A stretch of 64,000 nt of DNA, taken from the NCBI GenBank assembly GCA_963803995.1, contig CAWDOT010000005.1, positions 179,154 to 243,153 on the forward strand, read 5' to 3'. The stretch is from an uncultured Acidobacteriota bacterium. GTDB lineage: Bacteria > Acidobacteriota > Thermoanaerobaculia > Multivoradales > JAGPDF01. Under the pieces are notes generated by a model. That model had not been told where the DNA came from, did no database searches, and saw only the letters and a list, made by a program, of their open reading frames with translations. A program made the translations under genes and the position numbers. This document shows positions 1 to 56,864 of the stretch, one piece after another (within the stretch, counting starts at the first letter, position 1; every line of letters begins with the position of its first letter).

Positions 1-736
1 CGCGCTCCAGATCGACGGGAACCAGGCGCGGGCCTACGCGGTGCTCTCCGGGGTCGCGCAGGGGCGCTGGCAGTGGCAGGAAGCCGAGGAGCACGCCCGA
101 CACGCGATCGAGCTCGATCCGAACTCCGCCGACGCCCGCCGGAGCTACTGGCGGATCCTGGCCCCGCAGGCACGCTGGGCGGAGGCCCGCAGGCAGATCG
201 ATCTCGCCGTCCGGCTCGATCCGCTCTCCGCGCAGATGACCTCGAACCTGGGGCTCCAGCTCGTGTTCGAGCGGCGCTACGACGAGGCCGAGCGCGTCCT
301 CAAACATGCGCTCGAGCTCGACCGCGACTTTACGCTGTCGCATGCCTGGCTCTGGATCGTCTATACCAAGAAGAGGCAGGACCCCGAGCGCGGGCAGGAG
401 CTGGCCCGCTATCTGGAGGCCGTCAACCTGGGGCAGGCCGTGCCCGAGCTGGAACGCGAGCTGGCGGGTTCGGGCTACGAGGCCGCGCTGCGCGCGATCG
501 CGCTCCGGCTCTCCGCCGAGTATGCCGGCGACCCCGCGCAGGTCGGCATCATCTCCGGCCTCCTCGCCGAGGCAGGCAAGTCCGAGGAAGCCCTCAAGTG
601 GCTGCGCCTCGGACTCGAACGGCGCATCTGGGATCTGCCCTGGCAGGCCGTCACTCCCGATCTCGAAAACCTGCGCGGCCTTCCCGAGTACCGGCGCATC
701 ATCGCCGCGACCGGGCTTCCCAACGCGGACCTCTGA
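1..736 (+). CDS. TPR-repeat protein, 5'-partial (continues upstream of the window)
   Basis: ORF 41..736 translation shows repeated TPR-like A/L/Y/W helical pattern (AIELDPNSADARRSYW..., LDPLSAQMTSNLG..., LELDRDFTLSHAWLW...). The frame is open back to base 2. Confidence 0.6.
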   Translation, partial: ALQIDGNQARAYAVLSGVAQGRWQWQEAEEHARHAIELDPNSADARRSYWRILAPQARWAEARRQIDLAVRLDPLSAQMTSNLGLQLVFERRYDEAERVLKHALELDRDFTLSHAWLWIVYTKKRQDPERGQELARYLEAVNLGQAVPELERELAGSGYEAALRAIALRLSAEYAGDPAQVGIISGLLAEAGKSEEALKWLRLGLERRIWDLPWQAVTPDLENLRGLPEYRRIIAATGLPNADL

Positions 737-755
737 TCGTCGCGGGCTCCCGCCC

Positions 756-977
756 TCAATCTTGAATGTTGATCTTCGCCGCCGCCGCGTAGCGGTCGCC
801 GAGGTACTTCTTGAGCGCCTCCCGGTTGCCGCCGCGGACGAGCGCCTTCTCGATCGCGGTCAGCCCGGCCTCGTCCATGAGCTTATCGGCGGCCGCGCCG
901 CCCTTCTTCATGGTCGCGCGCAGCGACGGGTGCTTCGAGAGCGCGACGAGAAACGCCTGCAGATCCTGATAGGCCAT
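756..977 (-). CDS. RiPP precursor peptide (73 aa) with borosin-binding-domain / Nif11-like leader and a short hydrophobic C-terminal core
   Basis: MAYQDLQAFLVALSKHPSLRATMKKGGAAADKLMDEAGLTAIEKALVRGG-NREALKKYLGDRYAAAAKINIQD. Helical leader resembling Nif11/NHLP and split-borosin SonA-type leaders, internal GG motif, Ala/Ile-rich C-terminus. Divergent from the methyltransferase at 1082, about 105 bp apart. Confidence 0.6.
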   Translation of the reverse strand: MAYQDLQAFLVALSKHPSLRATMKKGGAAADKLMDEAGLTAIEKALVRGGNREALKKYLGDRYAAAAKINIQD

Positions 978-1081
978 GACCTCTCCCTCCTCCGGAAACG
1001 GACCGACGAATCGCGAACTAATCTAGCATCCAATTCCCGGCAACGTGGAGCACGCCGGATCGGAGTCAGGGGGTATCGACC

Positions 1082-1867
1082 ATGACGATGCAGCAGGGGG
1101 TGCTGACGATGGTCGGCACGGGCTTCCGTGTCGCCGGCCAGGTCACCGAGGAGTCGCTGTCGGCGATCGTCGAGGCCGACAAGCTCTTTCACCTGATCCA
1201 GGACCAGGTGACCCACCGCTGGCTCGAGGAGTTGAACCCGACCGCCGAGTCGCTCTACGACTCCTACCGTCCGGGCCGCCCCCGCCGCGAGACCTACGAG
1301 GAGATCGTGGAGCGGATGCTGGCGCCGGTGCGCCTGGGACGACGGGTCTGCGCGGCTTTCTACGGCCACCCCGGCGTGTTCGTGATGCCGTCCCACGAGG
1401 CGATCCGGCGCGCCCGCGCCGAGGGGCACGACGCGGAGATGCTGCCCGGCGTCTCGGCGGAGGACTGCCTCGTCGCCGACGTCGGCTTCGATCCCGGCCA
1501 GCGCGGCTGCCAGAGCTTCGAGGCCACCGACTTCCTCATCCGCCACCGACGCTTCGACGCGTCGAGCGCGCTGCTGCTCTGGCAGATCGGCGGCATCGGC
1601 GTCTCCGACTTCCGCACCGAGGTGTTCTGGAATCCGCGCGGCGTCGCGATCCTCGCCGAGACGCTCGCCGGCACCTATGGCGCGGAGCACGAGGTGGTCG
1701 TCTACGAGGCGTCGCCCTACCCGGTCGGTTCGCCCCTCGTCCACCGCTGTCGGCTGGCCGACCTGCCCGCGGCGCCCGTCACCAGCGGCTCGACGCTGCT
1801 CGTGCCGCCGCTCGCCGACCGGGAGTCCGACCAGGAGCTGCTCGCGCATCTGCGCGGTCTGGCCTGA
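1082..1867 (+). CDS. Borosin-type peptide alpha-N-methyltransferase (SonM/OphMA-like, tetrapyrrole-methylase fold)
   Basis: Strong motif identity to OphMA/SonM methyltransferase domain: MVGTGFRVAGQVT..., FYGHPGVFVMPSHEAIRRARAEGHDAEMLPGVSAEDCLVADVGFDPG, CQSFEATDF, LLLWQIGGIGV, HEVVVYEA, STLLVPPL. 261 aa, intact. Confidence 0.8.
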   Translation: MTMQQGVLTMVGTGFRVAGQVTEESLSAIVEADKLFHLIQDQVTHRWLEELNPTAESLYDSYRPGRPRRETYEEIVERMLAPVRLGRRVCAAFYGHPGVFVMPSHEAIRRARAEGHDAEMLPGVSAEDCLVADVGFDPGQRGCQSFEATDFLIRHRRFDASSALLLWQIGGIGVSDFRTEVFWNPRGVAILAETLAGTYGAEHEVVVYEASPYPVGSPLVHRCRLADLPAAPVTSGSTLLVPPLADRESDQELLAHLRGLA

Positions 1868-2281
1868 CTAGCGGCGGGCGAGCTCCGCCCGGATGCCCTC
1901 GATCAGGCGCGGCAGCCGGTCGGGACGGGGCAGCAGGCAGAGGTAGAGGATCTCGGCGACCCCATCGCCCCCCCGCTCGCCCAGGAAGTCGGAGGGGGCG
2001 TTCTCGTCCCACCAGGCGATCCAGATCGGCAGCCGGGCGGCGCGGGCTTCCTCGAGCGCGCGGCGCGACTCGGGCGAGCCGGACCAGCTCCGCGTGACGA
2101 ACAGGACGCATCCGCTGGGCGGGGTGTCGAACTCGGGCAGACCGCGCACGAAGCGCAGGTCGAGATCGGGCGCCGAGACCTCGTAGCCGGCGCGCGAGAG
2201 CTCGCGGGCGACCTCGAGCCCGAGATCGCGCTCTCCGGGGGAGGAGCGCAGCAGCAGGGTGGCCGTCATGGTCGACGGCAC
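1868..2281 (-). CDS. Hypothetical protein, possible TIR-like/DUF1863 fold (137 aa)
   Basis: ORF convergent with the methyltransferase. Segment CVLFVTRSWSGSPESRRALEEARAARLPIWIAWWDE resembles TIR-type cores. No other support. Confidence 0.35.
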   Translation of the reverse strand: MPSTMTATLLLRSSPGERDLGLEVARELSRAGYEVSAPDLDLRFVRGLPEFDTPPSGCVLFVTRSWSGSPESRRALEEARAARLPIWIAWWDENAPSDFLGERGGDGVAEILYLCLLPRPDRLPRLIEGIRAELARR

Positions 2282-2303: not shown

Positions 2304-3491
2304 TCAGGCGACGACCGGCAGCAGGGCGCTGGCGAGCTCCCGCTTCTCGGGGGTGAGCGCGTGGCGGTAGCGCGCCGCCAGCTCGGCGGTATCCGCGCGG
2401 GTGACCCAGCGCTCGTAGAGATTGGTCCGCTGGCGCGGCTCGTAGCCGGCCGCGCGGATGATGTGCTCCATCTCGTCCTGCGACATCTTGTAGTGCGCGC
2501 CCGCCGCCGAGACGACGTTCTCCTCGATCATGATCGAGCCCATGTCGTCGGCGCCGAAAGCGAGGCCGAGCTGGCCGATCTTCTTGCCCTGGGTCACCCA
2601 GCTCGACTGCAGGTGCTGGACGTTGTCGAGGAAGAGGCGCGAGACGGCGAGCGTCTTCAGGTACTCGTGCGCGAAGATCTCGGGCAGCTCGGTCAGGTCC
2701 GTGTGCTCGTGCTGGAAGGTCCAGGCGATGAAGGCGGTGAAGCCGCCGGTCTCGTCCTGCAGGTCGCGGATGCGCTGGAGGTGCTCGAGACGCGCGGCCA
2801 GGTCCTCGCCCATGCCGAACATCATCGTCGCGGTGGTGCGCATGCCGTGCCGGTGGGCCTGGCGCATGACGTCGATCCACTCCTCGGGCGAGGCCTTGGG
2901 ATAGGCGCGGACCTCCTTGCGGATCTCGTCGGAGAGGATCTCGGCGCCGCCGCCCGGGATCGACATCAGGCCGGCCTCCTTGAGCACGCCGATCACGTCG
3001 TGGAACGACATGCGCTCCTTCTTCGCCAGGAACTTGATCTCCGGCGGCGAGAAGCAGTGGCGGTGGATGTCCGGGTAGTTGTCGCGCAGGAAGTGGAGCA
3101 GATCGACGTAGTAGGAGAGCGGCAGGTCCGGGTTCACTCCGCCCTGCAGGAGGATGCCGGTGCCGTTGAGCGCCAGCGTCTCCTCGACCTTGCGGCCGAT
3201 CTCCTCGAGCGAGACCAGGTAGCCCTCTTCGTGTCCGGGCGGCCGGTAGAAGGCGCAGAAACGGCACTTGTAGACGCAGATGTTCGTGTAGTTGATGTTG
3301 CGGTCGACGTTGTAGGAGGCGAAGCCCGGCTCGTTCAGCCGGCAGCGCACCTCGTGCGCGGCCGCGCCGAGCGCGAGCAGGTCGCCGTCGAGCAGCAGGC
3401 GGTGGGCATCGCCGGCGCTGATGCGGCGGCCGGCGAGCGCGTCGGCGAGGATGGCGGCAACGGCGCGCGGCGAGGGTCCGGGCTCGAACAT
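2304..3491 (-). CDS. Radical SAM enzyme of the futalosine menaquinone pathway (MqnC/MqnE family)
   Basis: CVYKCRFCAF radical-SAM Cys motif. GGVNPDLPLSYYVDLL, FGMGEDLAARLEHLQRIRDLQDETGGFTAFIAWTFQ. Start set at internal ATG 3489..3491 (MFEPGP...), since the upstream part of the ORF is low-complexity Arg/Ser. Confidence 0.75.
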   Translation of the reverse strand: MFEPGPSPRAVAAILADALAGRRISAGDAHRLLLDGDLLALGAAAHEVRCRLNEPGFASYNVDRNINYTNICVYKCRFCAFYRPPGHEEGYLVSLEEIGRKVEETLALNGTGILLQGGVNPDLPLSYYVDLLHFLRDNYPDIHRHCFSPPEIKFLAKKERMSFHDVIGVLKEAGLMSIPGGGAEILSDEIRKEVRAYPKASPEEWIDVMRQAHRHGMRTTATMMFGMGEDLAARLEHLQRIRDLQDETGGFTAFIAWTFQHEHTDLTELPEIFAHEYLKTLAVSRLFLDNVQHLQSSWVTQGKKIGQLGLAFGADDMGSIMIEENVVSAAGAHYKMSQDEMEHIIRAAGYEPRQRTNLYERWVTRADTAELAARYRHALTPEKRELASALLPVVA

Positions 3492-3543
3492 TCGCCGGAT
3501 TCTACCGCCCCCGGTCGGCGGGGGCCCCGCCCGCCGAGGGAGA

Positions 3544-5439
3544 ATGGGCCCCATGAGCTCCCGTCGCCGACTCCCCCGTGCCCTGGCCCTGGGCGGGCTT
3601 GGCCTGCTCGCGCTCGTGGCCAGCGTGGTCCCGACCTGGCGCGTCGCGTTCGCCATGGTCCGCGACGACGGGCGCCTCGCCGCCTGGGCCAACCCCCGCC
3701 CGGAGCGGCTGCGGGTCGCCTGGCGGGAGATCCGGTCGCCGTTCCCCGGGCGCCTCGAGATCGAGGGTCTGCGCGTGGCCGGGCGGACCCAGCGGCTGCG
3801 CTGGGAGGTGAACGCGGACGCCGTCACGGGCTGGCTCTCCCCCTCTCCTCTGGCCCGCCGCGAGCTCGCCTTCACGGAAATCCGCGCGCGTGGCGTGCGC
3901 GTTCAAGTGGAATCGGCGCTGCCGCCGGCCGAGCCCGGAGTCGCGGCGCCGCCGCCACGGATTCCGGACTTTCCGGCCGGGCCGCCGCCGCCACCCGCGC
4001 CGCGCGCCCGCCCCTGGTCGTTCGGCTTCCGCGACATCGAGGTCGAGTCGCTCTCCGAGGTGCGGATCGACGACCGGGTCTTCGCGGGAAGCGCCCGCGG
4101 CCGGGGGGGATTCACGATGGTCCGGCGCCAGACCGCGGAGATCCTGCCATCCGAGGTGACGATCTCCGGCGTCGAGGTCTCGACCCCCGGAGCCCGCCAC
4201 GCCTCGGCCGTCGACGGACGAATCCGCTTCCGCGTCGACCCCTATCCCTATCGGGGCATCCGGCCGATCGATCTGCTCGGCCGCCTGACCGGCGAGATCG
4301 AGCTGGACGGCGAGCTCGACCCCCAGGCGGCGCTCGCCTACCTCACCCGCGGCTGGCCTTCGCTCGAGCTCGAGAGCGGCGTCTCCCGGCTCTCCGCCCG
4401 GCTCCGGCTCGACCATGGGCAGCTCGCCGCCGGCTCACGGCTCGACCTGCCGGCGGCGCGCCAGGCGGTCCGCTTCCTCGGCTTCGAGGCCCGCGGCACC
4501 GCGCGGATCGAGGCGCACGTCGAGAGCGCCCTCGGCGCGCCCCGCCTGCGCTCCGAGCTCACGCTCGGCGACTGGGAGCTGGGACGCCCCGGGGCGCCCG
4601 GGGTGGCCTTCGGCGACGGCCTGCGCCTGACCGCAAGCGCGGACCTGCCGAGCCTTCTGGCCCCGCCGCCCGGCGGGGAGCTCGAGGTCGACCTCGGCCG
4701 GGCACGGATTCCCGACCTCGGCTTCCTCAACGCCTTCGTGCCCGCGGCGGCAGGGCTGGAGATCGAGCGGGGCGAGGTCTCGCTCGGCGGCCGGCTCCAC
4801 CTGTCGCGGGCCGACGGCGAGGGCGACGGGCTGATCCAGGTGCGGGGCGAGCGTGTCCGGCTGCTCGCGCGCGGGCAGCACCTCGCCGGGGACCTCGAGG
4901 CCGACATCCGGCTCTCCGAACCCGACTTGCGGGCGGGCGCCTTCTCGCTCGCCGGCACGCGCGTCGCGCTGCGCCGGGTCACGGCCGAGACCTCCGGCGG
5001 GGACGAGGTGCGCGACTGGTGGGGAGACGCCACCCTGACCGCCGGCCGGATCGATCTGCGCCCGCCGCTCTCGTTCGCGGGCGACTTCACCGCCAAGCTC
5101 GCCGACACCCGTCCGCTCATCGCCTTCTACGAGATCCGGCGCGATCTCTCGGACTGGACCGAGCGGCTGTTGACCGTCGAGGGGCTCTCGGCCACTGGCA
5201 GCTTCGAGTGGAGCGTGGGGCGCTTCGCGCTCCGGCGCGGCTTCGTTCCGCTCAACCGCGGGGAGCTCCGGGCCCGGTTCCTGCTCGAGGGGGGGGAGAG
5301 CCGCGGGCGGTTGCTCGCGCGCTGGCGCCGGCTGGTGGTCGGGGTCGAGCTGGCGGGCGGCAAGCGGACCGTGCATCTCCGCGACGCCCAGGGCTGGTTC
5401 GACGCCGACCCGGAGCCGGCCGCCGCGAGTGAAGACTAG
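3544..5439 (+). CDS. Large secreted or membrane-anchored hypothetical protein (signal peptide; AsmA/TamB-like?)
   Basis: ATG 3544 preceded by GAGGGA RBS. N-terminus MGPMSSRRRLPRALALGGLGLLALVASVV is signal-like. 631 aa with repetitive beta-rich segments. Divergent from mqnC/E. Confidence 0.55.
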   Translation: MGPMSSRRRLPRALALGGLGLLALVASVVPTWRVAFAMVRDDGRLAAWANPRPERLRVAWREIRSPFPGRLEIEGLRVAGRTQRLRWEVNADAVTGWLSPSPLARRELAFTEIRARGVRVQVESALPPAEPGVAAPPPRIPDFPAGPPPPPAPRARPWSFGFRDIEVESLSEVRIDDRVFAGSARGRGGFTMVRRQTAEILPSEVTISGVEVSTPGARHASAVDGRIRFRVDPYPYRGIRPIDLLGRLTGEIELDGELDPQAALAYLTRGWPSLELESGVSRLSARLRLDHGQLAAGSRLDLPAARQAVRFLGFEARGTARIEAHVESALGAPRLRSELTLGDWELGRPGAPGVAFGDGLRLTASADLPSLLAPPPGGELEVDLGRARIPDLGFLNAFVPAAAGLEIERGEVSLGGRLHLSRADGEGDGLIQVRGERVRLLARGQHLAGDLEADIRLSEPDLRAGAFSLAGTRVALRRVTAETSGGDEVRDWWGDATLTAGRIDLRPPLSFAGDFTAKLADTRPLIAFYEIRRDLSDWTERLLTVEGLSATGSFEWSVGRFALRRGFVPLNRGELRARFLLEGGESRGRLLARWRRLVVGVELAGGKRTVHLRDAQGWFDADPEPAAASED

Positions 5440-9764: not shown

Positions 9765-10042
9765 GCGCGCGCTTTCGGTTCATCTCGGGCCCTCCCGGCC
9801 CGCCGCGAGTCTAGACGAGCCTGCGGGGAAAGACAGCCGTCCGCCCCGAGTGGAACAGATTCGGCTGTTCCGCTCGCCGCCGGCCGCTGTCCATTCTCAT
9901 GCCGGCCGCCAGACCTCGCGACCGGCGGACGCTCGTCTCCCGCACCCCCCGCCGGAACCCCTCCCCCACCTCCCACCAGGCGCGGGCCACCGGAAGCGTC
10001 CCCGGGGCCCGTCGCCTCTCCCTCTGGATAGGATGGCGCACG

Positions 10043-12607
10043 GTGACCCCCCTCCGATCGGCCGTCACGAATCTCGTCCTGGCCCTCGCTCTCGGGGCAC
10101 CCGCCGCGGCGCCGGCCGTGACGCTCGAGCAGGCGCTCGACCACCACTACGCCGGCCGGATCGACGAGGCCGTCGCCATCTACCGCGCTCTCGTCGCGAC
10201 GCCCGGCACGCCCGCGGCGGACCTCGCGTCAGCCCACAACAACCTCTGCGTCGTCCACAACGACCGCGGCGAGTACGCGGCCGCGCTCGCCGAGTGTCGC
10301 GAGGCCGAGCGCGGCCGCCGGGCGCTCGGCGACCGCCTCCGGCTGGCGCACACGCTCAACAATCTCGCCCTGGCCCATCAGTACCTGGGCGACGCCGCGG
10401 CGGCCGAGGGCGCCTTCCGCGAGGCGCTCGCCCTCGACCGGGAGCTGGGCGAGACCGAGGACGAGGCGATCGTGCTCGCCAACCTCGCGGCGCTCGCGAT
10501 CGGCGGCGGGCGCTACGGCGCCGCGCTCGACGCGCTCGCCGGCGTCGAGGCGCTCACCGCGGCCCACGCCGGCGATCCCTGGGCACCCGAGCAGCGCCGC
10601 GTGGCGATGCTCAACCGGGCCGTGGTGCTCGAGCGCCTCGGCGCCCACCGCGAGGCGCTCGGCGGGCTGCTCGAGCTGGCGCGCGAACCGGAGCCCGATT
10701 CCCGCCACGAGGCCGCGCTCGCCGCCAACCTCGGCGTGATCTACCGCAACCTCGGCGATCCGCGCGCCGCCGCGCGCGAGCTCGACCGGGCCGCCGCGCT
10801 CTTCCGCGCCGAGCGGGACCGGGGCGGCCTGGCCAACGCGTTGCTCAACCGGGGCCAGGTCGCCGAGCTCCACCTGCGGGAGCCGGAGTCCGCCGAGCGG
10901 CTCTACCTCGAAGCGCTCGCCGAAGCCGAGGCGGGGGGGGATCGCGGCCAGCAGGTCCAGGCGCTGATCTTCCTCGGACGGCTCCGCCGCGGCGCCGGCC
11001 GCGACGCGGCGGCGGAGTCGGATCTGGGCGCCGCGCTCGATCTCGCGCGCGGGATCGACGATCCGGAGGCCGCCGCCGCCGCGCTCGGCGAGCTGGCGCG
11101 CCTCGACCGCGCGCGCGGCGACGGCGACGGCGCCGCGCGCCGCCTCGACGAGGCGCTGGCCGCGCTCGAATCCGTGCGCGCCGGCGCGCGGTCGAGCGGT
11201 CACGCCGCCGGCTACGTCGCCGACAAGCGCGCGCTCTACGCCGCCGCGGTGGATCTCGCCGCCGAGCGGGCGCTCGCGAGTGGCGCCCGCGCCGACGTGC
11301 TCGCCGCGCTCGCGCGGGTCGAGCGCGCCAAGGCGCGCGAGCTGCTCGACGCCCTCGGCGGCGGCACGCTCGAGCCGCTCGACGCCGCCGCGCTCGACCG
11401 GCTCGACCGGACGCCGGGCACCCGGATCGAGCTCTACCTGGGCGAGCGGCGGCTCTGGCGCTTCCGTCTCGGCGACGGCGGCGCGGCGCTCGCCGACGCC
11501 GGCGATGCCGCGACGGCGCTCGAGCGCGCGCAGCGCGTCCACGCGGCCCTCGGGCGGGGCGCCGCTCCCGCGCGCGCCGACCTCGACGCCCTCGGCCGCG
11601 ATCTGCTGGGCGGCCTGGGCGAGCTCTCGGGACCGCTGGTGATCGCCCCCGACGGCCGCCTGCGCTACCTCCCCTTCGAGCTGCTCGCGCCGCGGGAGGG
11701 CGCCCCGCTCGTCGAACGCGCCGAGATCGTGTACCTGCCCAGCCTCTCGGTCGTCCCCGTCCGGTCGGGGGGGGCGCGCGCCTGGAGCTTCGTCGGCTTC
11801 GGCGCGGTGGCGCCGCCGGCGCTCGGCGCTCGCGGCGGCCTGACCGCCGGACGCCTGCTCGCCGACCGCTTCGCCCTCGCGCCGCTGCCGGCTTCCGCGC
11901 GGGAGCTCGCGGCGGCGGCCGCGCGGCTGCCGCCACCCTTCCGGATCGAGCTCGAAGCCGCCGCGACCGAGGCGGAGCTGAGGCGGCGGGCGACGGAGGG
12001 GTCGCGCGTGCTCCATTTCGCCACCCATGCGGTGGTCGACGAGCGGCTGGAACCGGGCGCGGCGATCTTCCTGGCGCCCGCCGGCGAGGACGACGGCCTG
12101 CTGACCGCGGCCGAGATCGCCCGTCTGCCGCTCGCCGCGGATCTCGCGGTGCTCGCCGCCTGCCGGAGCGCCGTGGGCTCCGCGGCCGACGGCCGGGCGC
12201 TGTCGAGCCTGACCGGCGCCTTCCTCGCGGCGGGGGCGGGCGGCGTGGTGGCGAGCCTCTGGGAGGTGGGAGACGCGGCGACCGCCGCGTTCATGGAGCA
12301 GTTCTATTTCGGGCTCGGGCGCGGCCACACGCCCGCGGTGGCTCTCGCCCGGGCCAAGCGCAGGTTGCGCGCGGACCCGCGCTGGTCGGATCCCGCGCTC
12401 TGGGCGGCGTTCGTCCTGGTCGGCGATGCGCCGGCGGTCGCGCCCTCGTGGCGGCGCTTCCTGCCCGCGTTCGCGGCGGGCGCAGCGGCGGCCGCGCTGG
12501 CGCTCGCGGCCGCGCTCTACCGCGCCGGCTCGAGACGCAGGTCCGCGAGCTCGGACGCCGCCAGCTCGCGGCCCGACGCGTCGAGCGCCGAGACCCGCAC
12601 GCGGTAG
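10043..12607 (+). CDS. TPR-repeat + CHAT-domain (caspase-like peptidase) protein, with predicted signal peptide
   Basis: N-terminal TPRs (AAAEGAFREALALDRELGETEDEAIVLANLA...). C-terminal CHAT hallmarks (VLHFATHAVVDERLEPGAAIFLAP...LAVLAACRSAVG). In-frame GTG 10043 gives signal-like N-term TPLRSAVTNLVLALALGAPAAAPAV. The ATG 9899 extension is Arg/Pro low-complexity. Confidence 0.7.
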   Translation: MTPLRSAVTNLVLALALGAPAAAPAVTLEQALDHHYAGRIDEAVAIYRALVATPGTPAADLASAHNNLCVVHNDRGEYAAALAECREAERGRRALGDRLRLAHTLNNLALAHQYLGDAAAAEGAFREALALDRELGETEDEAIVLANLAALAIGGGRYGAALDALAGVEALTAAHAGDPWAPEQRRVAMLNRAVVLERLGAHREALGGLLELAREPEPDSRHEAALAANLGVIYRNLGDPRAAARELDRAAALFRAERDRGGLANALLNRGQVAELHLREPESAERLYLEALAEAEAGGDRGQQVQALIFLGRLRRGAGRDAAAESDLGAALDLARGIDDPEAAAAALGELARLDRARGDGDGAARRLDEALAALESVRAGARSSGHAAGYVADKRALYAAAVDLAAERALASGARADVLAALARVERAKARELLDALGGGTLEPLDAAALDRLDRTPGTRIELYLGERRLWRFRLGDGGAALADAGDAATALERAQRVHAALGRGAAPARADLDALGRDLLGGLGELSGPLVIAPDGRLRYLPFELLAPREGAPLVERAEIVYLPSLSVVPVRSGGARAWSFVGFGAVAPPALGARGGLTAGRLLADRFALAPLPASARELAAAAARLPPPFRIELEAAATEAELRRRATEGSRVLHFATHAVVDERLEPGAAIFLAPAGEDDGLLTAAEIARLPLAADLAVLAACRSAVGSAADGRALSSLTGAFLAAGAGGVVASLWEVGDAATAAFMEQFYFGLGRGHTPAVALARAKRRLRADPRWSDPALWAAFVLVGDAPAVAPSWRRFLPAFAAGAAAAALALAAALYRAGSRRRSASSDAASSRPDASSAETRTR

Positions 12608-20929: not shown

Positions 20930-22231
20930 CTAGCGCATCGCTTCCATCGGCGAGAGCTTCGCGGCGCGCAGCGCCGGGTAGAGGCCGAAGACGGCGGCCA
21001 GAACCAGCGCCGAGGCCCAACCCGCGGCCAGGCCGAAGCGGCTGACGATCAGGCCGTAGGGGAAGAAGCCCGAGAGGGCGCGGCAGAGCGCGGCGCCGCC
21101 GACGGTGCCGACGAAGGCGCCGATTGCGGCGAGCACCAGCGCCTCGAGCAGGAACTGGCCGAGGATCTGGCCGTCGGTCGCGCCCAGCGACTTGCGCAGG
21201 CCGATCTCGTAGCGCCGCTCGGAGAACGAGATCAGCATCACCGAGAGCACGCCGACGCCGCCCACCAGGAGCACGGTGATCGCCAGGCTGTAGAGCACGA
21301 TCGCCCAGCCGCGCATCTGCTCGAGGAAGCGCGAGTAGGCCTTCGCGCCCTCGGCGTCGAGGTCGAGCACGCGCACGTCGTCGATGCCGTGGTGCGCCTG
21401 CCGGATGCGTCCCAGGACCACCGGGGCCATCTCCTCGAAGTCCTCCGGGGACTTCAGCTTCACCGCGACGTGGGCGAGCTTGTGGTCGGGGTCGAGCCGG
21501 TCCATGTAGGTCTCGAGCGGCACGTGGACGCCGTTGGCGTCCATGTAGTTCTCGTCGGAGAAGAGCATCCCGGGCGCCTGCACGCCGACGATCCGGTAGG
21601 GGACACCCTCGATCACCAGGTCGCGGCCGACCGGGTCGCTGCCGCCGTAGAGCTTGGATGCGAGCGTCGCGCCCACCACGGCGACGGTGCGCCGCCGCTT
21701 CTGGTCGTCCTCGGTGAGGCCGCGGCCGAGCGCGATCGGCCGGTTCATCAGCCAGGCGTAGTCGGCGGTGACGCCGGTGACGAAGATCCGCTCGCTGCCG
21801 CCGGTGGCCCGCACGTTGACCCGCCGGGTCGCACGCGGCGCGAACCCGAGGATCTTCTCGTGCGGCAGGGTCAGGCGCGCCAGGTCCTCGTAGCGCAGCC
21901 CCGGGCTCATCGCGTAGCGCTTCTGCTCCTCGGTGGTGCGCGGCTCGCGCGGGGCCAGCAGCAGCGTGCCGTCCCAGCTCATGCCGGCGAAGCCGGTGGC
22001 GATCTTGTCCTTGATGCCGTCGAGCACCGAGGTCATCACCACCAGGGCGAAGACCCCGAGCATGAGCAGGGTGAGGGTGAGGATCGAGCGCATCTTGTGC
22101 GCCCAGAGCTCGACGAAGCCGCCGGCGACGACCTCCCAGGCGAGCGCCAGGCGGGCGACGAGCCCGCTCCTCGGCGCCGGCGCCGCCCCGAGCCCGAGCG
22201 CGCGCTCGCGGACGAGCAGGCTCTCACTCAT
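20930..22231 (-). CDS. ABC transporter permease, FtsX/MacB family
   Basis: N-terminal TM, large periplasmic domain, C-terminal FtsX 3-TM bundle (IGLRKSLGATDGQILGQFLLEALVLAAIGAFVG). Confidence 0.8.
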   Translation of the reverse strand: MSESLLVRERALGLGAAPAPRSGLVARLALAWEVVAGGFVELWAHKMRSILTLTLLMLGVFALVVMTSVLDGIKDKIATGFAGMSWDGTLLLAPREPRTTEEQKRYAMSPGLRYEDLARLTLPHEKILGFAPRATRRVNVRATGGSERIFVTGVTADYAWLMNRPIALGRGLTEDDQKRRRTVAVVGATLASKLYGGSDPVGRDLVIEGVPYRIVGVQAPGMLFSDENYMDANGVHVPLETYMDRLDPDHKLAHVAVKLKSPEDFEEMAPVVLGRIRQAHHGIDDVRVLDLDAEGAKAYSRFLEQMRGWAIVLYSLAITVLLVGGVGVLSVMLISFSERRYEIGLRKSLGATDGQILGQFLLEALVLAAIGAFVGTVGGAALCRALSGFFPYGLIVSRFGLAAGWASALVLAAVFGLYPALRAAKLSPMEAMR

Positions 22232-23474
22232 AGCGCAGCGCCTCCATCGGGGAGAGGCGGCTCGCCCGCCAGGCCGGATAGAGCGCGAACAGGAAGCCGA
22301 AGACGAGCGCCAGCAGGAAGGCCCAGAGGAAGCTCGCCGGCGCCAGCGTCAGCGGGATGCCGATCGCCTTCGTGATCACCCAGGAGAGGCCGACGCCGAC
22401 GCCGAAGCCGCCGACGCCGCCGAGCACCGACAGCAGCATCGCCTCGGTCAGGAAGCCGCGGAAGATCTCGCCGCCCGAGGCGCCGATCGCCATCTTCACC
22501 CCGACCTCGCGCACCCGCTCCTTGAGCGACGCGAGCTGGATGTTGACGTTGACCATGCCGCCGCCGACCAGCGCGAGCACTCCCGAGAGCATGAAGATCA
22601 GGTTGTAGACGTCGCCCTGGCTCATCTGGCGCTCGAGCCGCTTGGCCATGTCGTCGAGCCGGTAGTCGCGCTGCTGGCGGTGGCTCGAGTAGACGAGCGC
22701 CGAGAGCTGCTTCGAGAAATCGGCGACATCCTCGACTTTCGGCACCCGGAAAGTGACGCGGTCGAGCCGGTGGTAGTCGTCGCCCTGCATGCGCCCCGCG
22801 ACCAGGCCGGAGGGCACGGCGACGATCCGGTTGCGCCAGGCGAACTGGTTGTGCGACCCCGCGCGGAAGCGGAAGACCTTCTCCTCGAGCACGCCGATCA
22901 CGGTCACCGGCACCTCGCCGACGCGCAGCGTCTGGCCGACGACGTCGCCGGTCGGGAAGAAGGTCTCGGCCGCCTCGGAACCGAGGATCGCCACCGCGCT
23001 CCCCCGCTCCTGGTCGTGCGTGGAGAGCTCCCGCCCCTGCTCGAGCCGGTACCCCTGGATCGGCAGGTAGTCGGCGCCGATGCCGGTCACCTGGCGCTCC
23101 TGGTCGGCCCAGGCCGAGCGCACCCGGGCGTTCACCGAGCGCTGGATCGAGACCCCCTCGACCGCCTCGGCGTCGAGCTCGGTGCCGCGCCGCGCGTCCT
23201 CGGCGCGCAGGCCGAGGTTGGCCATCTTGAGGGCCGACGGGCGTCCCTCCTCGACCACCTCCACCGGAAAGACGTTGAGCTTGTCGATGCCGCCCACCTT
23301 CGCGAACAGGCGCTCGGCCTGGCGGCGCTGGCTGTCGGAGATCGAGAAGCCGCCGAGCACCGAGGCGACGCCGAGCATGATGCCGAGCGCCTGGAGCAGC
23401 GAGCGGCCAGGGTTCTCCGCGATCTCCACCCAGGCCGAGCGGAGCCGTTCGCGAAACGCGCCGGTCGTCTTCAT
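22224..23474 (-). CDS. ABC transporter permease, FtsX/MacB family (second copy)
   Basis: Same architecture (VGVKMAIGASGGEIFRGFLTEAMLLSVLGGVGG). Confidence 0.8.
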   Translation of the reverse strand: MKTTGAFRERLRSAWVEIAENPGRSLLQALGIMLGVASVLGGFSISDSQRRQAERLFAKVGGIDKLNVFPVEVVEEGRPSALKMANLGLRAEDARRGTELDAEAVEGVSIQRSVNARVRSAWADQERQVTGIGADYLPIQGYRLEQGRELSTHDQERGSAVAILGSEAAETFFPTGDVVGQTLRVGEVPVTVIGVLEEKVFRFRAGSHNQFAWRNRIVAVPSGLVAGRMQGDDYHRLDRVTFRVPKVEDVADFSKQLSALVYSSHRQQRDYRLDDMAKRLERQMSQGDVYNLIFMLSGVLALVGGGMVNVNIQLASLKERVREVGVKMAIGASGGEIFRGFLTEAMLLSVLGGVGGFGVGVGLSWVITKAIGIPLTLAPASFLWAFLLALVFGFLFALYPAWRASRLSPMEALRYE

Positions 23475-24163
23475 GCCGCGGCCGCCTCCGGCACGTGCAC
23501 GAGGCCGTCGCGGATCTCGACCTGGCGCCCGGCGAGCGCCGCGATGTTCGGATCGTGGGTGACCAGCAGCAGCGTGTTGCCCTTGCGGTTGAGCTCGGCG
23601 AAGAGCTCGAGCACTTCGTGACCGGTCTTCGAGTCGAGCGCGCCGGTCGGCTCGTCGGCGAGCAGCAGCGCCGGCCGGTTGGCGAGCGCGCGGGCGATCG
23701 CCACGCGCTGGCGCTGGCCGCCGGAGAGCTGGCCCGGCAGGCTCTTCGCCTTCTCCGGGATGCCGACCAGCTCGAGCAGCTCCTCGGCGCGCTCACGCCG
23801 CTCGCGCGCCGGCCAGCCGGCGTAGAGCAGCGGCAGCTCGACGTTGCGCGCGACCGAGGCGCGCGGCAGCAGGTTGTAGCTCTGGAAGACGAAGCCGACC
23901 TTGGCGTTGCGCACCGCGGCGAGCGCCGCGCCGGCGAGCTCCTCGACCGGCTCGCCGTCGAGCCGGTAGGTGCCGGCGGTCGGCCGGTCGAGGCAGCCGA
24001 TCAGCGCCATCAGGGTCGACTTGCCCGAACCCGAGGGCCCGACCAGCGCGACGAACTCGCCGCGCGCGACGTCGAGGTCGACGCCGCGCAGCGCGTGCAC
24101 CGCGGTGCCGTTGCTGCCGTAGACCTTGGTGAGGCCGCGCGCCTCGATGATCGGGGCGGCCAC
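23471..24163 (-). CDS. ABC transporter ATP-binding protein (MacB/LolD-type)
   Basis: Walker [10 protein letters not shown], signature [15 protein letters not shown], Walker [16 protein letters not shown] start at 24161..24163. Confidence 0.85.
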
Positions 24164-24164
24164 G

Positions 24165-25380
24165 TCAGTCGACCTCGTCGTCGCGCTCGACCTTCTTGCG
24201 CGTGGGATCCTCGAGCGCCACCTGGTCGCCGTCGGCGAGGCCGGCCATCACCTCGACCCGTTCGAGGGTCGCGATGCCCGCCTCGATGCCGACCGGCTCG
24301 AAGAACTCCTCCCAGTGCTCGGAGAGCCAGGTGTACTTGCTCTTGCCGGACAGGCCCGTGCGCGCCTTCTCGATCTCCGCTTCCGGCGAGGTCCTTCTTC
24401 AGCCGGTAGGCGACCACCTCGCCCTCGCGCCGCTGCAGCGCCTCGAGCGGGATCGAGAGCGCGTGCTCGCGCCGCTCGCCGAGGATCTCGACGTTGGCGC
24501 TCATGCCGGTGCGGAAGGAGGCGTCGAGCTCGTCGAGCGCGATCTCGGTCTCGAAGACCTTGATCTTGTCGGCGAGCGTCGCCGCCGGCGCCACGAACCG
24601 GACCTTGCCGGTGAAGGCCTTCTGCGGGTAGGCGTCGAGCGTCACGCGCACCGGCTGCCCGGGTCCCACCTTGGCGATGTCGACCTCGTTGAGATTGACC
24701 TTGATCACCAGCGAGCCGAGGTCGGCGACCGTGAACAGCACCGTGCCGGCGTTGAACGAGGAGACGCCGGAGGTGACCGTCTCGCCGAGCTCGACGCCGC
24801 GCTGGATCACCACGCCGTCCATCGGCGCCACGACCCGCGCGACCTGCGAGCCGGCGGCCGAGATCGGGATGCCGTGGTCCTCGACGATGCGGTAGCGCGT
24901 GCGCGCGGCCTCGAGATCCTGCGCCGCGAGGTCGCGGGCGGTCTCGAACTCGCGCAGCGACTCGCTGCCGAGCAGGCCCGCGTCCGCGAGCCGCCGCTGC
25001 GTGGCGAGCGCGCGCTCGGCGTCGCGCAGCTTGAGCTCGGCCTGGTCGACCGCCGAAGTCACCTCGGAGAGCGACTGCGCCTGGGTGACGTCCGGCTCGA
25101 CCTCGGCCAGCAGGTCGCCGCGCCGGACCTGGTCGCCCTCGCGCACGTGCAGCTTCACGATCCGCCCCGACACGGTCGACTTGACCTCGACCTTGTTGAG
25201 CGGGTCGACGACGCCGACCTCGCGCACCGAGACCTGGAGGTCCTCGGCCACCACTTTGCCGAGGCGGAAGGGCGGCTCCTTCGGCTCGGCCGGCGTGTCG
25301 CCACGCCCCCTGGCGGCGATCAGGGTACCCGCGACGCCCAGGACGGCCACGCCCGCGATGATCCACTTCTTCCTGTCCAT
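24165..25380 (-). CDS. macA: Efflux transporter periplasmic adaptor subunit (MacA/HlyD family), frameshifted near 24388
   Basis: MDRKKWIIAGVAVLGVAGTLIAA signal anchor, coiled-coil and beta-barrel segments. The C-terminus (PEAEIEKARTGLSGKSKYTWLSEHWEEFFEPVGIEAGIATLERVEVMAGLADGDQVALEDP...) only reads in the +1 frame after the extra G at about 24388. Confidence 0.75.
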
Positions 25381-45816: not shown

Positions 45817-48003
<2,187 letters not shown>

Positions 48004-48059: not shown

Positions 48060-48884
48060 TCAGCCGGCGGCCGGAGCGGCGGCGGGCAGGAAGCGGATCC
48101 GGGTAGCCGGAGCGAGCCCGCGGGCCGCGGCCCGGCGCAGGTACTCGGCGAGACCCGCCTGCTCGGCCGGGCCCATGGTGAAGCGGAGATTGCGGGTGTA
48201 GTAGTCGGCGAGGACCGCCGGCGCGAGACCGGTTTCGGCGGCGGTTTCGGCGACGATCGCGTCGAGCTCGGAGAGGCCCGTGGCGAGGCTGGCCGCCAGC
48301 ATCGCGACCAGCTCGCCCGCCGGCGGGCCCTCGCGCACGGCCCAGACCGCGAAGACGAAGGGCAGTCCGGTCAGCTCGAGCCACTCGCCGGCGAGGTCGA
48401 GCACGACGTAGCGGTCGCGCGGCACGGTGAGGGCGGGATCGCCGATCAGCAGCGCGGCGTCGGAGCCGGCCAGCATCTCTTCGAGGTCGGCGCGCGCGGG
48501 GCGGTATTCCGGCTCCAGGCCGTAGCGCTCGGCGAGCAGGATGCGGACGAGCGCCGCCGAGGTCCGGCTGTTCTCGTCGAGCGCCACCGAGCGGATCTCG
48601 CCGATCGGGACCTTCGAGACGAGCAGGACGCTGCGCACCTCGTGGGTCGCCGCGATCGCGATGCCGGGGACGACCGCCAGCCCCGGGATGCGCGCGACTT
48701 CGACCGACGGAACGAGGCCGGCGTCGAGGCTGCCGTCGCGCAGCCGGTCGGCGATCACCGCCGGCGGCAGCAGCTCGCAGACGAAAGAGCCGCCCGGCTC
48801 GCCCCGCTGGAGACCGCGGGAGAGCGGGCGGCTGTTGACGTACTGGACGATGCCGATGCGGAAGGGCGACGGGGAGGGGCACAT
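48060..48884 (-). CDS. mqnA: Futalosine-pathway menaquinone biosynthesis protein MqnA/MqnD family
   Basis: [14 protein letters not shown]... periplasmic-binding-protein-like fold characteristic of MqnA/MqnD. Confidence 0.65.
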
Positions 48885-54872: not shown

Positions 54873-55460
54873 TCAGGACTTGCGCCGCTCCATCACCTGG
54901 TCGACCAGGCCATACGCCACGGCCTCCTCGGCGCCGAGGATCTTGTCGCGCTCGGTGTCGGAATGAACCTGCTCCCGGGTCTTGCCGGTGTGGAACGCCA
55001 GGATGTCGTCGATCTTCTCGCGCAGCTTGAGCAGCTCGCGCGCGTGGATCTCGATGTCGGTCGCCTGGCCCGCCATCCCCTGGGTCCAGGGCTGGTGGAT
55101 CAGGACCCGGCTGTTGGGCAGCGCCGTCCGCTTGCCGGTCTGGCCGGCGGCGAGCAGCACGGCCGCCATCGAGGCGGCCTGGCCCACGCACAGGGTCGCG
55201 ACGTCGGGCTTGATGTACTGCATGGTGTCGTAGATCGCGAGACCCGCGGTCACCGAGCCGCCCGGCGAGTTGATGTACAGGTGGATGTCGCGCTCGGGGT
55301 TCTCCGCCTCGAGAAAGAGCATCTGGGCGATGACCAGGCTCGCCACCTCGTCGTCGATCGGCCGGCCGAGGAAGATGATGTTGTCCTTGAGCAGCCGCGA
55401 GTAGATGTCGTAGGCGCGCTCGCCCCGGTTGGTCTGCTCGACCACCATCGGAATCAGCAT
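54873..55460 (-). CDS. clpP: ATP-dependent Clp protease proteolytic subunit ClpP
   Basis: [32 protein letters not shown]...[11 protein letters not shown] (catalytic Ser) ...HQP. Confidence 0.9.
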
Positions 55461-55470
55461 GAAGCTCCCC

Positions 55471-56739
55471 TCACTTGGGGTCCGCGTCCGCGGCGGGGAT
55501 CTCCCCGAGCAGGCGTCGGACCATCTTGTCGCGGCGCATTCTGGCCCGAAGTCCCGCCAGCTGTCCCGTTTCGTCCAGCCGGTGGCGCAGGGCGTGGGTC
55601 GCGACCCCCTGCGTCCGTGCCAACAGCGCGAGCGCCTGCTCGAATTCCTGTTCCCCGACCTCGACGCTCTCCTTCTCGGCGATGGCGTCGAGCAGCAGCC
55701 GCGCGCGCACCCGGCGCTCGGCGTGGGGCGGGCCTCCTCCCCCATCTTCTGCCAGTCGATCCCGGCCTTCTCGAGGTCGAGCCCCTGGCGCGCGAGCCCC
55801 TCGGCGTAGTCCTTGAGCAGGTCCTCGATCTCGTGGTGGACCACGCCCTCGGGCAGCGGGAAGGTGTGGCGCTCGGTCAGCTGGTCGAGCAGCGCGGTCT
55901 CGCGCTGCTGGCGGGCGTTCTGCTCCTTCGCCGAGCGGATCCGGCGCGCCACGTCCGTTTCGAGCTCGGCGACCGAGCCGTACTTGCCGAAATGCGCGGC
56001 GAACTCGGCGTCGAGCTCGGGCAGCGTCGCCTCCTGGACCTCGGCGATCCGCACTTCGTAGCTGCGCTCCGTCGCCGCCTCCCCTTCGCCGTCGCGCCGG
56101 GTGAAGCGCCCGGTCTGGCCCGCCGCGAGCCCGGTCACCGCGGCCGAGAGCTCGTCCCAGTAGCGCGCATTGCCGACCTCGAGCTCGGCGGGACCGAAGG
56201 GGCCGGGACCCTCGGCGAGGATCTCGGCGATCTCCAGACGGACCCGGTCGCCGGCCGCGGCCGCGCGCTCGACCGGGTTCCAGGTGGCATGCCCCCGGCG
56301 CAGGTCGGCGACCGCCCCCGCGACCTCCTCGGGCGCCGGCTCGGTGGCCGGCGTGGGCAGGGCGAAGTCCTGGTAGTTGCGCAGCTCGATCTCGGGGCGG
56401 ACCTCGACGGTCGCCAGGAAGGTGAGCGGCTCGCCGTCGTGCAGATGGACGTCGCGCACCTCCGGCGTGGTCAGGGCGTCGATCCCCGTTTCCGCCGCCG
56501 CCAGCTTCCAGTACCGGGGGACCAGCCGCTCGAGGACCTCCTGGCGGATATCCGGGCCGTAGTGGCGCATGACCATGGCTCGCCGGCACCTTCCCCTTGC
56601 GGAAGCCGGGGATCTTCGCCTTCCGGCCGAACTCGGCCGAGACCCGCGCGGTCTCGGCCTCGACGGCGGGCAGGGGGACTTCGATCTTCAGCTGCTTGCG
56701 ACAGGGACCGGTTTCTTCGACGGCGAGGACGACGCTCAT
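55471..56739 (-). CDS. tig: Trigger factor, two frameshifts
   Basis: [22 protein letters not shown]...FRKGKVPA (N), [23 protein letters not shown] (middle), ...[22 protein letters not shown] (C) in three frames. Confidence 0.75.
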
Positions 56740-56775
56740 CAGGCGGTCTTTCTTGGGAGTGGGAGGTCGGCGATG

Positions 56776-56864
56776 GGGTGCGAAAGGGGGGACTCGAACC
56801 CCCAACCCGATCACTCGGGACTAGATCCTAAGTCTAGCGCGTATACCAGTTCCGCCACTTTCGC
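56776..56864 (-). tRNA. tRNA-Leu (anticodon TAG), class II with long variable arm
   Basis: Reverse complement folds: acceptor GCGAAAG/CTTTCGC, anticodon stem CTAGA/TCTAG with loop CTTAGGA, variable arm TCCCGAGTGATCGGGTT, T-arm GGGGGTTCGAGTCCCCC. Confidence 0.85.

Follow-up and report, generated by a model that had tools for sequence, protein, structure and literature searches.

The 73-residue peptide encoded at 756..977 on the minus strand of the window (by which we mean the whole 64-kb stretch of DNA that was analysed) is, as judged by profile comparisons and structure models, a type IV split-borosin precursor with an N-terminal borosin-binding domain (BBD). A sequence-only reading of the same DNA had given it a Nif11/NHLP-like leader that ends in a Gly-Gly cleavage motif, had noted a borosin-binding shape as well, and had left two ways of processing equally open. 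The alignments described below indicate that this Gly-Gly, G49-G50, is a lineage-specific variant of the x-G-D turn seen in SonA as T44-G45-D46, and not the end of a double-glycine leader. The best joint explanation, to which we assign a probability of about 0.85, is that the adjacent N-methyltransferase (NMT) takes the peptide as its substrate, that the Gly-Gly forms a turn of the BBD, and that the product is released near G60|D61. Because the peptide would be the substrate of an adjacent SonM-type α-N-methyltransferase, the locus would be a type IV split borosin. The features concerned are as follows.

1..736, plus strand: C-terminal TPR part of a membrane Ser/Thr kinase-TPR protein, truncated by the start of the window and convergent with the precursor gene.
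756..977, minus strand: precursor peptide gene (predicted type IV split-borosin precursor), 73 codons plus stop.
759..797, minus strand: predicted core, residues 61-73, DRYAAAAKINIQD, starting at G60|D61 and homologous to the N-terminus of Shewanellamide A.
798..977, minus strand: leader, residues 1-60, predicted to be a BBD with a five-helix bundle (hhalign to SonA, AlphaFold2 models, Foldseek).
828..833, minus strand: G49-G50, the Gly-Gly in question, placed in the turn between BBD helices 4 and 5 by alignments, column counts and AlphaFold2 models.
897..902, minus strand: G26-G27, a second Gly-Gly, in the turn between helices 2 and 3 and invariant in 20 orthologues.
980..993, minus strand: Shine-Dalgarno sequence GGAGGAGGGAGAGG of the precursor gene, 2 nt 5' of the ATG.
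1082..1867, plus strand: borosin α-N-methyltransferase of the SonM type, 261 residues (match to PDB 7ltc_A; Pfam TP_methylase).

The open reading frame at 756..977 is a real, conserved, coding gene. Its translation on the minus strand is MAYQDLQAFLVALSKHPSLRATMKKGGAAADKLMDEAGLTAIEKALVRGGNREALKKYLGDRYAAAAKINIQD. Four observations establish this: its GC content by codon position (0.90 at third and 0.41 at second positions, with a window average of 71.6%) has the profile of the true genes of this window; it is preceded by the Shine-Dalgarno sequence, a strong one; substitutions relative to orthologous DNA are concentrated at third codon positions (27, against 10 at second positions); and it has 19 orthologues, which are 67–92% identical and 72–73 residues long, and all of which start MAY or MAF. 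The precursor is present in one copy within the 64-kb window. A search of GTDB genomes for loci of the narrow family returned a single match, an Acidobacteria bacterium MAG. No promoter-like site was found when the region 600..1200 was scanned for promoters and terminators, and the lone terminator-like match from the same scan lies inside the precursor ORF and was discarded as not meaningful. The reading frame, the sequence and the 23-mer after the Gly-Gly had all been quoted correctly in the sequence-only reading.

The product of the neighbouring gene, 1082..1867, matches SonM (PDB 7ltc_A) with E=7.8e-59 and the methyltransferase domains of fungal OphMA, dbOphMA and MroMA with E=1e-55 to 4e-48, against E=5e-8 or worse for NCBIfam models of the tetrapyrrole-methylase type. 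The catalytic Tyr/Arg/Tyr is intact, with Y58, R67 and Y71 of SonM corresponding to Y62, R68 and Y72 here. The protein also carries YGHP at 94-97 and DCLVAD at 128-133; YGHP and DCLxAD are the signature motifs that define borosin NMTs (bioRxiv 2021.12.24.474128).

The precursor and NMT genes are divergent, with 104 bp between them. The same pairing is repeated in related loci L001-L008 and L010-L012, and it recurs in relatives down to about 40% identity; TP_methylase genes adjoin the distant relatives too. One variation is found in L012, where a distant relative of the precursor (P0046) is followed by two tandem NMT genes on the same strand (45..1586), instead of the single divergent NMT found here. 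Directly downstream of the NMT is a gene for a 137-residue protein (1868..2281, minus strand), which is conserved in the closer loci at 35–82% identity and absent from L010 and L011. Neither Pfam nor NCBIfam gave a family match for its product.

A phmmer search of the peptide itself against PDB sequences found no match, and a profile of the narrow family run with hmmsearch against the same sequences gave six weak chance matches, SonA not being among them; a comparison of profile with profile was needed to make the link to SonA. An exhaustive profile search identified 30 relatives, and a wide alignment of 32 sequences (A3) was compared with SonA, the sequence of which was confirmed against 7ltc_B. 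The match has an hhalign probability of 97.5% (E=7.9e-12, 59 columns), and the narrow family, compared with a SonA family of 18 members, reaches a probability of 89% (E=2.2e-6). The Pfam LigA model (PF07746) is found at E≤1 in 26 of the 32 relatives (best E=2.7e-7), the window peptide alone giving no match to it at that threshold. SonA homologues carry PF07746, and SonA is filed under LigA in Pfam.

Two AlphaFold2 models (pLDDT 72) were generated, and both predict five helices, at residues 3-15, 17-25, 28-36, 41-49 and 52-66/68. The first model gave no match when run with Foldseek against the PDB. The second, which was built on the wider alignment, was searched against 350,542 PDB chains and has as its top match the BBD of SonA (7ltr_I; TM 0.70, 2.2 Å, 53 columns, all 52 residues), with an E-value of 1.5, which is not significant; below it in the ranking come other chains of SonA, the clasp of dbOphMA, and LigA. 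A non-significant E-value is usual in such a search for a helical domain of around 50 residues. The borosin-binding shape proposed from the sequence alone is strongly supported by the SonM homologue next door, by significant profile matches to SonA and by the top-ranked structural match.

SonA and SonM of Shewanella oneidensis MR-1 (PDB 7LTC/7LTE; Shewanellamide A), a type IV split borosin, are the closest named system. Like SonM, the NMT found here is a discrete protein of about 260 residues with the same catalytic triad. Both precursors have about 70 residues and, in the case of this one by prediction, consist of a five-helix BBD followed by a short hydrophobic C-terminal core; helix 5 is preceded in both by an x-G-D turn, the BBD is joined to the released peptide at a G|D junction, and the core contains Φ-x-Φ residues. 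In both systems the cluster contains no protease, and there is a membrane signalling neighbour with a TPR domain. The differences are also clear. The two precursors are only 25–30% identical. This one has a three-residue insertion after helix 2 (in the region of G27-A28-A29), within which lies the second Gly-Gly, G26-G27, and which sets it apart from most of the wider relatives as well as from SonA. Its turn reads GGN rather than TGD, and its core is three residues shorter and rich in alanine. The neighbour is a Ser/Thr kinase-TPR protein here and a GGDEF-TPR protein in Shewanella, and the host belongs to an acidobacterial lineage, whereas SonA and SonM come from Gammaproteobacteria; methylation and product are predictions in the present case.

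The position of G49-G50 within this domain can be read from the alignments. The BBD of SonA comprises residues 1-53, and its fifth helix follows the T44-G45-D46 turn (PMC8429565). In all three profile alignments G50-N51 falls on G45-D46 of SonA, which would place G49-G50 at the turn between helices 4 and 5, inside the docking domain; residues 50 and 51 are non-helical in both AlphaFold2 models. The motif of the family is x-G-D. Residue 51 is Asp in 30 of the 32 relatives, the window peptide with its Asn being an outlier. Among the 20 orthologues, column 49 is Gly in 11, Ser in six, Lys in two and Asp in one, and column 50 is Gly in 18 and Arg in two. A GG, GA or GS pair is consequently present at 49-50 in only 10 of these 20, and in four of the 32 wider relatives.

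The pattern of conservation along the peptide is, on the alignment, the opposite of that expected for a boundary between leader and core at residue 50. In the wide family conservation is highest at residues 51-61, with an entropy of 1.56 bits against 1.89 for residues 1-48, and it is only past residue 61 that variability climbs, to 2.5–2.9 bits. The residues that come after the Gly-Gly are the best conserved in the family, and so do not behave as a core.

A different boundary is suggested by Shewanellamide A, which corresponds to residues 56-71 of SonA, its first residue D56 coming directly after G55 (PMC10549244). In the profile alignments G55-D56 of SonA aligns with G60-D61, a pair that all 20 orthologues have without exception; of the 32 wider relatives, 28 have Gly at residue 60 and 22 have Asp at residue 61. 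On the basis of this correspondence, and of the known start of Shewanellamide A, DRYAAAAKINIQD is predicted as the released peptide, with G60|D61 as the likelier boundary. The boundary is proposed by analogy only, since SamA1, discussed below, is processed differently.

The likely sites of methylation follow in a similar way. The regiospecificity of SonM is set by local sequence, with a bulky residue before the first site and methylation at positions i and i+2 (PMC11751858), and column 69 is Ile or Val in 28 of the 32 relatives. The motif (V/I)69-x-(I/V)71 is therefore the likely methylation site, and I69 and I71 are the residues that are probably N-methylated. We infer here methylation itself, its sites and the cleavage point, all three.

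On the basis of these comparisons we hypothesise the following sequence of events. The peptide would be a substrate of the adjacent SonM-type enzyme. Residues 1 to about 60 would fold as a five-helix BBD that docks on the methyltransferase dimer, and docking would feed the C-terminal tail (residues 61-73, approximately) into the active site, where at least one backbone amide around K68-I69-N70-I71 would be methylated in a SAM-dependent reaction. After methylation an unlinked protease would probably cut at or near G60|D61, as happens at G55|D56 in Shewanella, and this would release N-methylated DRYAAAAKINIQD.

Candidates for a linked leader protease were considered in the window, namely the CHAT-TPR protein, Lon/ClpXP and a Peptidase_C26 protein, and were rejected, none of them being syntenic with the pair in related loci. 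The first of these (9899..12607, plus strand) is a 902-residue protein with TPR and CHAT (caspase-like) domains, encoded at a distance of 9 kb from the pair. Since its position is not kept in L001, a part in processing of the peptide is improbable.

As an alternative, it could be proposed that the peptide is a borosin substrate from which nothing small is released, the whole 73-residue protein with its methylated tail being functional, for example as a ligand or regulator of the kinase-TPR protein, or else that it is trimmed at some point other than G60|D61. The conserved module encodes no protease, the processing of type IV borosins is known in two cases, which differ, and the literature names no protease for SonA; moreover the kinase-TPR gene keeps its place next to the pair in loci whose other flank is different. 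Set against this, the invariant G60-D61 of the orthologues, with its well-conserved Gly in the wider family, coincides exactly, in the alignment, with the site at which the one close analogue to have been characterised is cleaved, and the proteases of RiPP pathways are often encoded away from the cluster. We regard this alternative as rather improbable, and retain release near G60|D61.

The second of the two characterised cases is that of SamA1, SamM1 and SamP from Shewanella amazonensis, also type IV, which includes a pepsin-like protease. It resembles the present locus in having a BBD-fused precursor and a discrete NMT. In SamA1 a single methylation directs the encoded aspartic protease, which releases a long, unmethylated, acidic C-terminal peptide. 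The precursor described here differs in that it ends with its hydrophobic motif and has nothing beyond it, and an A1 protease is absent.

The reading that takes the Gly-Gly at face value would make the peptide a Nif11/NHLP-type precursor, with a C39 peptidase-ABC exporter, encoded elsewhere, that would cleave behind G50 and carry the 23-mer NREALKKYLGDRYAAAAKINIQD out of the cell, with or without methyl groups. The Nif11 impression behind it has a real basis. Read directly, LTAIEKALVRGG is similar to the consensus LSxxELxxIxGG in positions -12, -11, -8, -4, -2 and -1, and the N-terminal 40 residues are Nif11-like. When the narrow profile is compared with prochlorosin leaders (a set in which ProcA2.8 was confirmed), LTAIEKALVRGG can be aligned on LSDDELEGVAGG through a 14-residue gap such that the two Gly-Gly pairs coincide, with a probability of 62% (E=7.4e-5). 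The wide family matches the same Nif11 leaders with a probability of 92.5% (E=4.8e-7), over residues 1-40 only.

The detailed requirements of the exporter peptidases do not fit so well. For cleavage by a PCAT peptidase, positions -4, -7 and -12 have to be hydrophobic (PMC10885120). Counted from G50, positions -4 and -12 are indeed hydrophobic, but -7 is Lys in 13 of the 20 orthologues and Lys, Arg or Gln in 17, and -15 is Glu in all 20. Shuffling the peptide produces a GG in 36% of cases, so that the presence of a GG carries no information by itself; a G followed by Gly, Ala or Ser and with hydrophobic residues at -4 and -12 is obtained in 9%. A cut after G50 would also remove helix 5 of the predicted BBD, and the 23-residue "core" would begin with this helix, and thus with the family's most conserved segment.

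The comparison with curated leader families points in the same direction. The Pfam Nif11 model matches the window peptide with E=0.021 and 15.5 bits, against a cut-off of 23.8, over residues 1-24 only, and NCBIfam, including leader_Nif11 (TIGR03798) and leader_NHLP (TIGR03793), gives no match at E≤1. Among the 32 relatives there are weak Nif11 matches, 12 to the Pfam model and one to TIGR03798. Models of the NHLP clan match relatives below threshold and over the first 40 or so residues only (for example TIGR04509, 27.2 bits against a cut-off of 34). It is worth adding that the BBD family also gives a sub-threshold match to the IniB_NTERM model. The Nif11/NHLP-like leader of the sequence-only reading therefore stands as a likeness over residues 1-40, but not as membership of a curated family.

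The likeness to Nif11 leaders such as ProcA (PF07862, TIGR03798) extends over helices 1-3, with the pattern LxxFLxxLxxDxxLxxxLk...AG, and beyond this helix 4 and its turn look superficially like LSDDELEGVAGG. The differences are that the window peptide scores below threshold and does not have the spacer of about 14 residues and the conserved double-glycine motif; that its own GG is not conserved and is not followed by a variable core; that no C39 exporter was found nearby; and that the partner enzyme is an NMT rather than LanM or another Nif11-associated maturase. NHLP/proteusin leaders and the LigA subunit of protocatechuate 4,5-dioxygenase likewise have the small helical-bundle fold in common with this peptide, but the matches of the relatives to them fall below curated cut-offs and cover about 40 residues, and a dioxygenase or proteusin maturase context is absent here. 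That the NHLP leader bundle is structurally similar to borosin clasp domains is known from published work (PMC10858898). The resemblance to Nif11 thus points to a common small helical-bundle fold and not to membership of the double-glycine leader class. The helical leader domains of the Nif11, NHLP-clan, LigA-like and BBD groups may have a common origin. As a weaker side reading, the x-G-D turn of the BBD could be the evolutionary counterpart of the Nif11/NHLP double-glycine motif.

An exporter of the required type was sought directly. Pfam scans of 35 ORFs found no Peptidase_C39 in the 64-kb window, and a six-frame motif scan of the window detected a single ABC ATPase and no Cys motif of the C39 type. 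The only ABC system in the window, at 20930..25380, consists of two MacB_PCD/FtsX proteins, an ABC_tran protein and HlyD, in agreement with the earlier description of a MacB-type system and of no C39 exporter nearby. Neither a protease nor a PCAT was found near the pair in any related locus. The genome was seen in part, the C39 search covering these 64 kb of a 269,749-bp contig and the related loci. Taking both sides together, cleavage after G50 is very unlikely. The alignment against Nif11-leader and split-borosin families that the sequence-only reading had put forward as a check yields a clear BBD assignment with no conservation of the Gly-Gly, the outcome that it had named as counting against its proposal. 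The two ways of processing are accordingly not equally open, and G60|D61 was not among the options that had been offered.

That the peptide is not a RiPP precursor at all, but a small LigA/Nif11-like helical protein lying by chance beside a TP_methylase-family enzyme with some other substrate, is hardly credible: the peptide alone falls below every curated family threshold, and LigA-like domains also cap dioxygenase active sites, but the enzyme resembles SonM and OphMA (E around 1e-59 to 1e-55) much more closely than it does the tetrapyrrole methylases, the pairing of peptide and methylase persists in distant relatives, and the hydrophobic C-terminal tail past the bundle mirrors that of SonA.

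The gene on the other side of the precursor is of interest for the function of the borosin pair. In related loci the full kinase has approximately 815–820 residues (10240..12702 in L001, 5148..7595 in L005 and 6244..8613 in L010), with an N-terminal kinase domain, one transmembrane helix at around 317-337, and an extracytoplasmic region that ends in TPRs. Every related locus has such a membrane Ser/Thr kinase gene convergent with that of the precursor, and L010 and L011, where the other flank differs, are no exception. GGDEF-TPR proteins have been reported in more than half of split-borosin clusters. By analogy with these neighbours in Shewanella, the kinase-TPR protein may be a functional partner of the pair. 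One could go further and suggest that kinase-TPR protein, BBD precursor and NMT form a signalling unit, in which the N-methylated, Asp-terminated peptide would be sensed by the TPR domain; this we consider speculative and on balance unlikely.

Two further observations concern the window as a whole. The trigger factor gene tig (54873..56814, minus strand) appears to be split over two frames: the segments for its N and C termini share the frame of ORF 55471..56814, and the segment between them uses that of ORF 54873..56576. The latter runs into clpP and is a single ORF of 567 residues with Trigger_N, Trigger_C and CLP_protease domains. This suggests two compensating frameshifts, from an assembly error or in a pseudogene. 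The window also contains menaquinone genes of the futalosine pathway (an MqnC equivalog at 2304..3875 and a VitK2_biosynth-family protein at 48060..48884) and a cytochrome cd1 nitrite reductase (45817..47958), all on the minus strand; these are genes of housekeeping and respiration, and fit an acidobacterial MAG.

The assignment removes a false ambiguity, in that the Gly-Gly should not serve as a basis for predicting the mature product. It also has a wider consequence for genome mining: rules by which a GG and a Nif11-like N-terminus suffice for a double-glycine leader will mis-annotate BBDs. In its place there is a concrete and testable prediction of the product, DRYAAAAKINIQD, probably N-methylated at I69 and I71. 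In published surveys the group of BBD precursors is dominated by Pseudomonadota, and the acidobacterial lineage described here is an addition to the type IV split borosins. Finally, the recurrent kinase-TPR neighbour provides a lead toward the biological function of bacterial borosins; if the signalling unit outlined above were to prove correct, it would give them a physiological role, as signals that the cell makes for itself.
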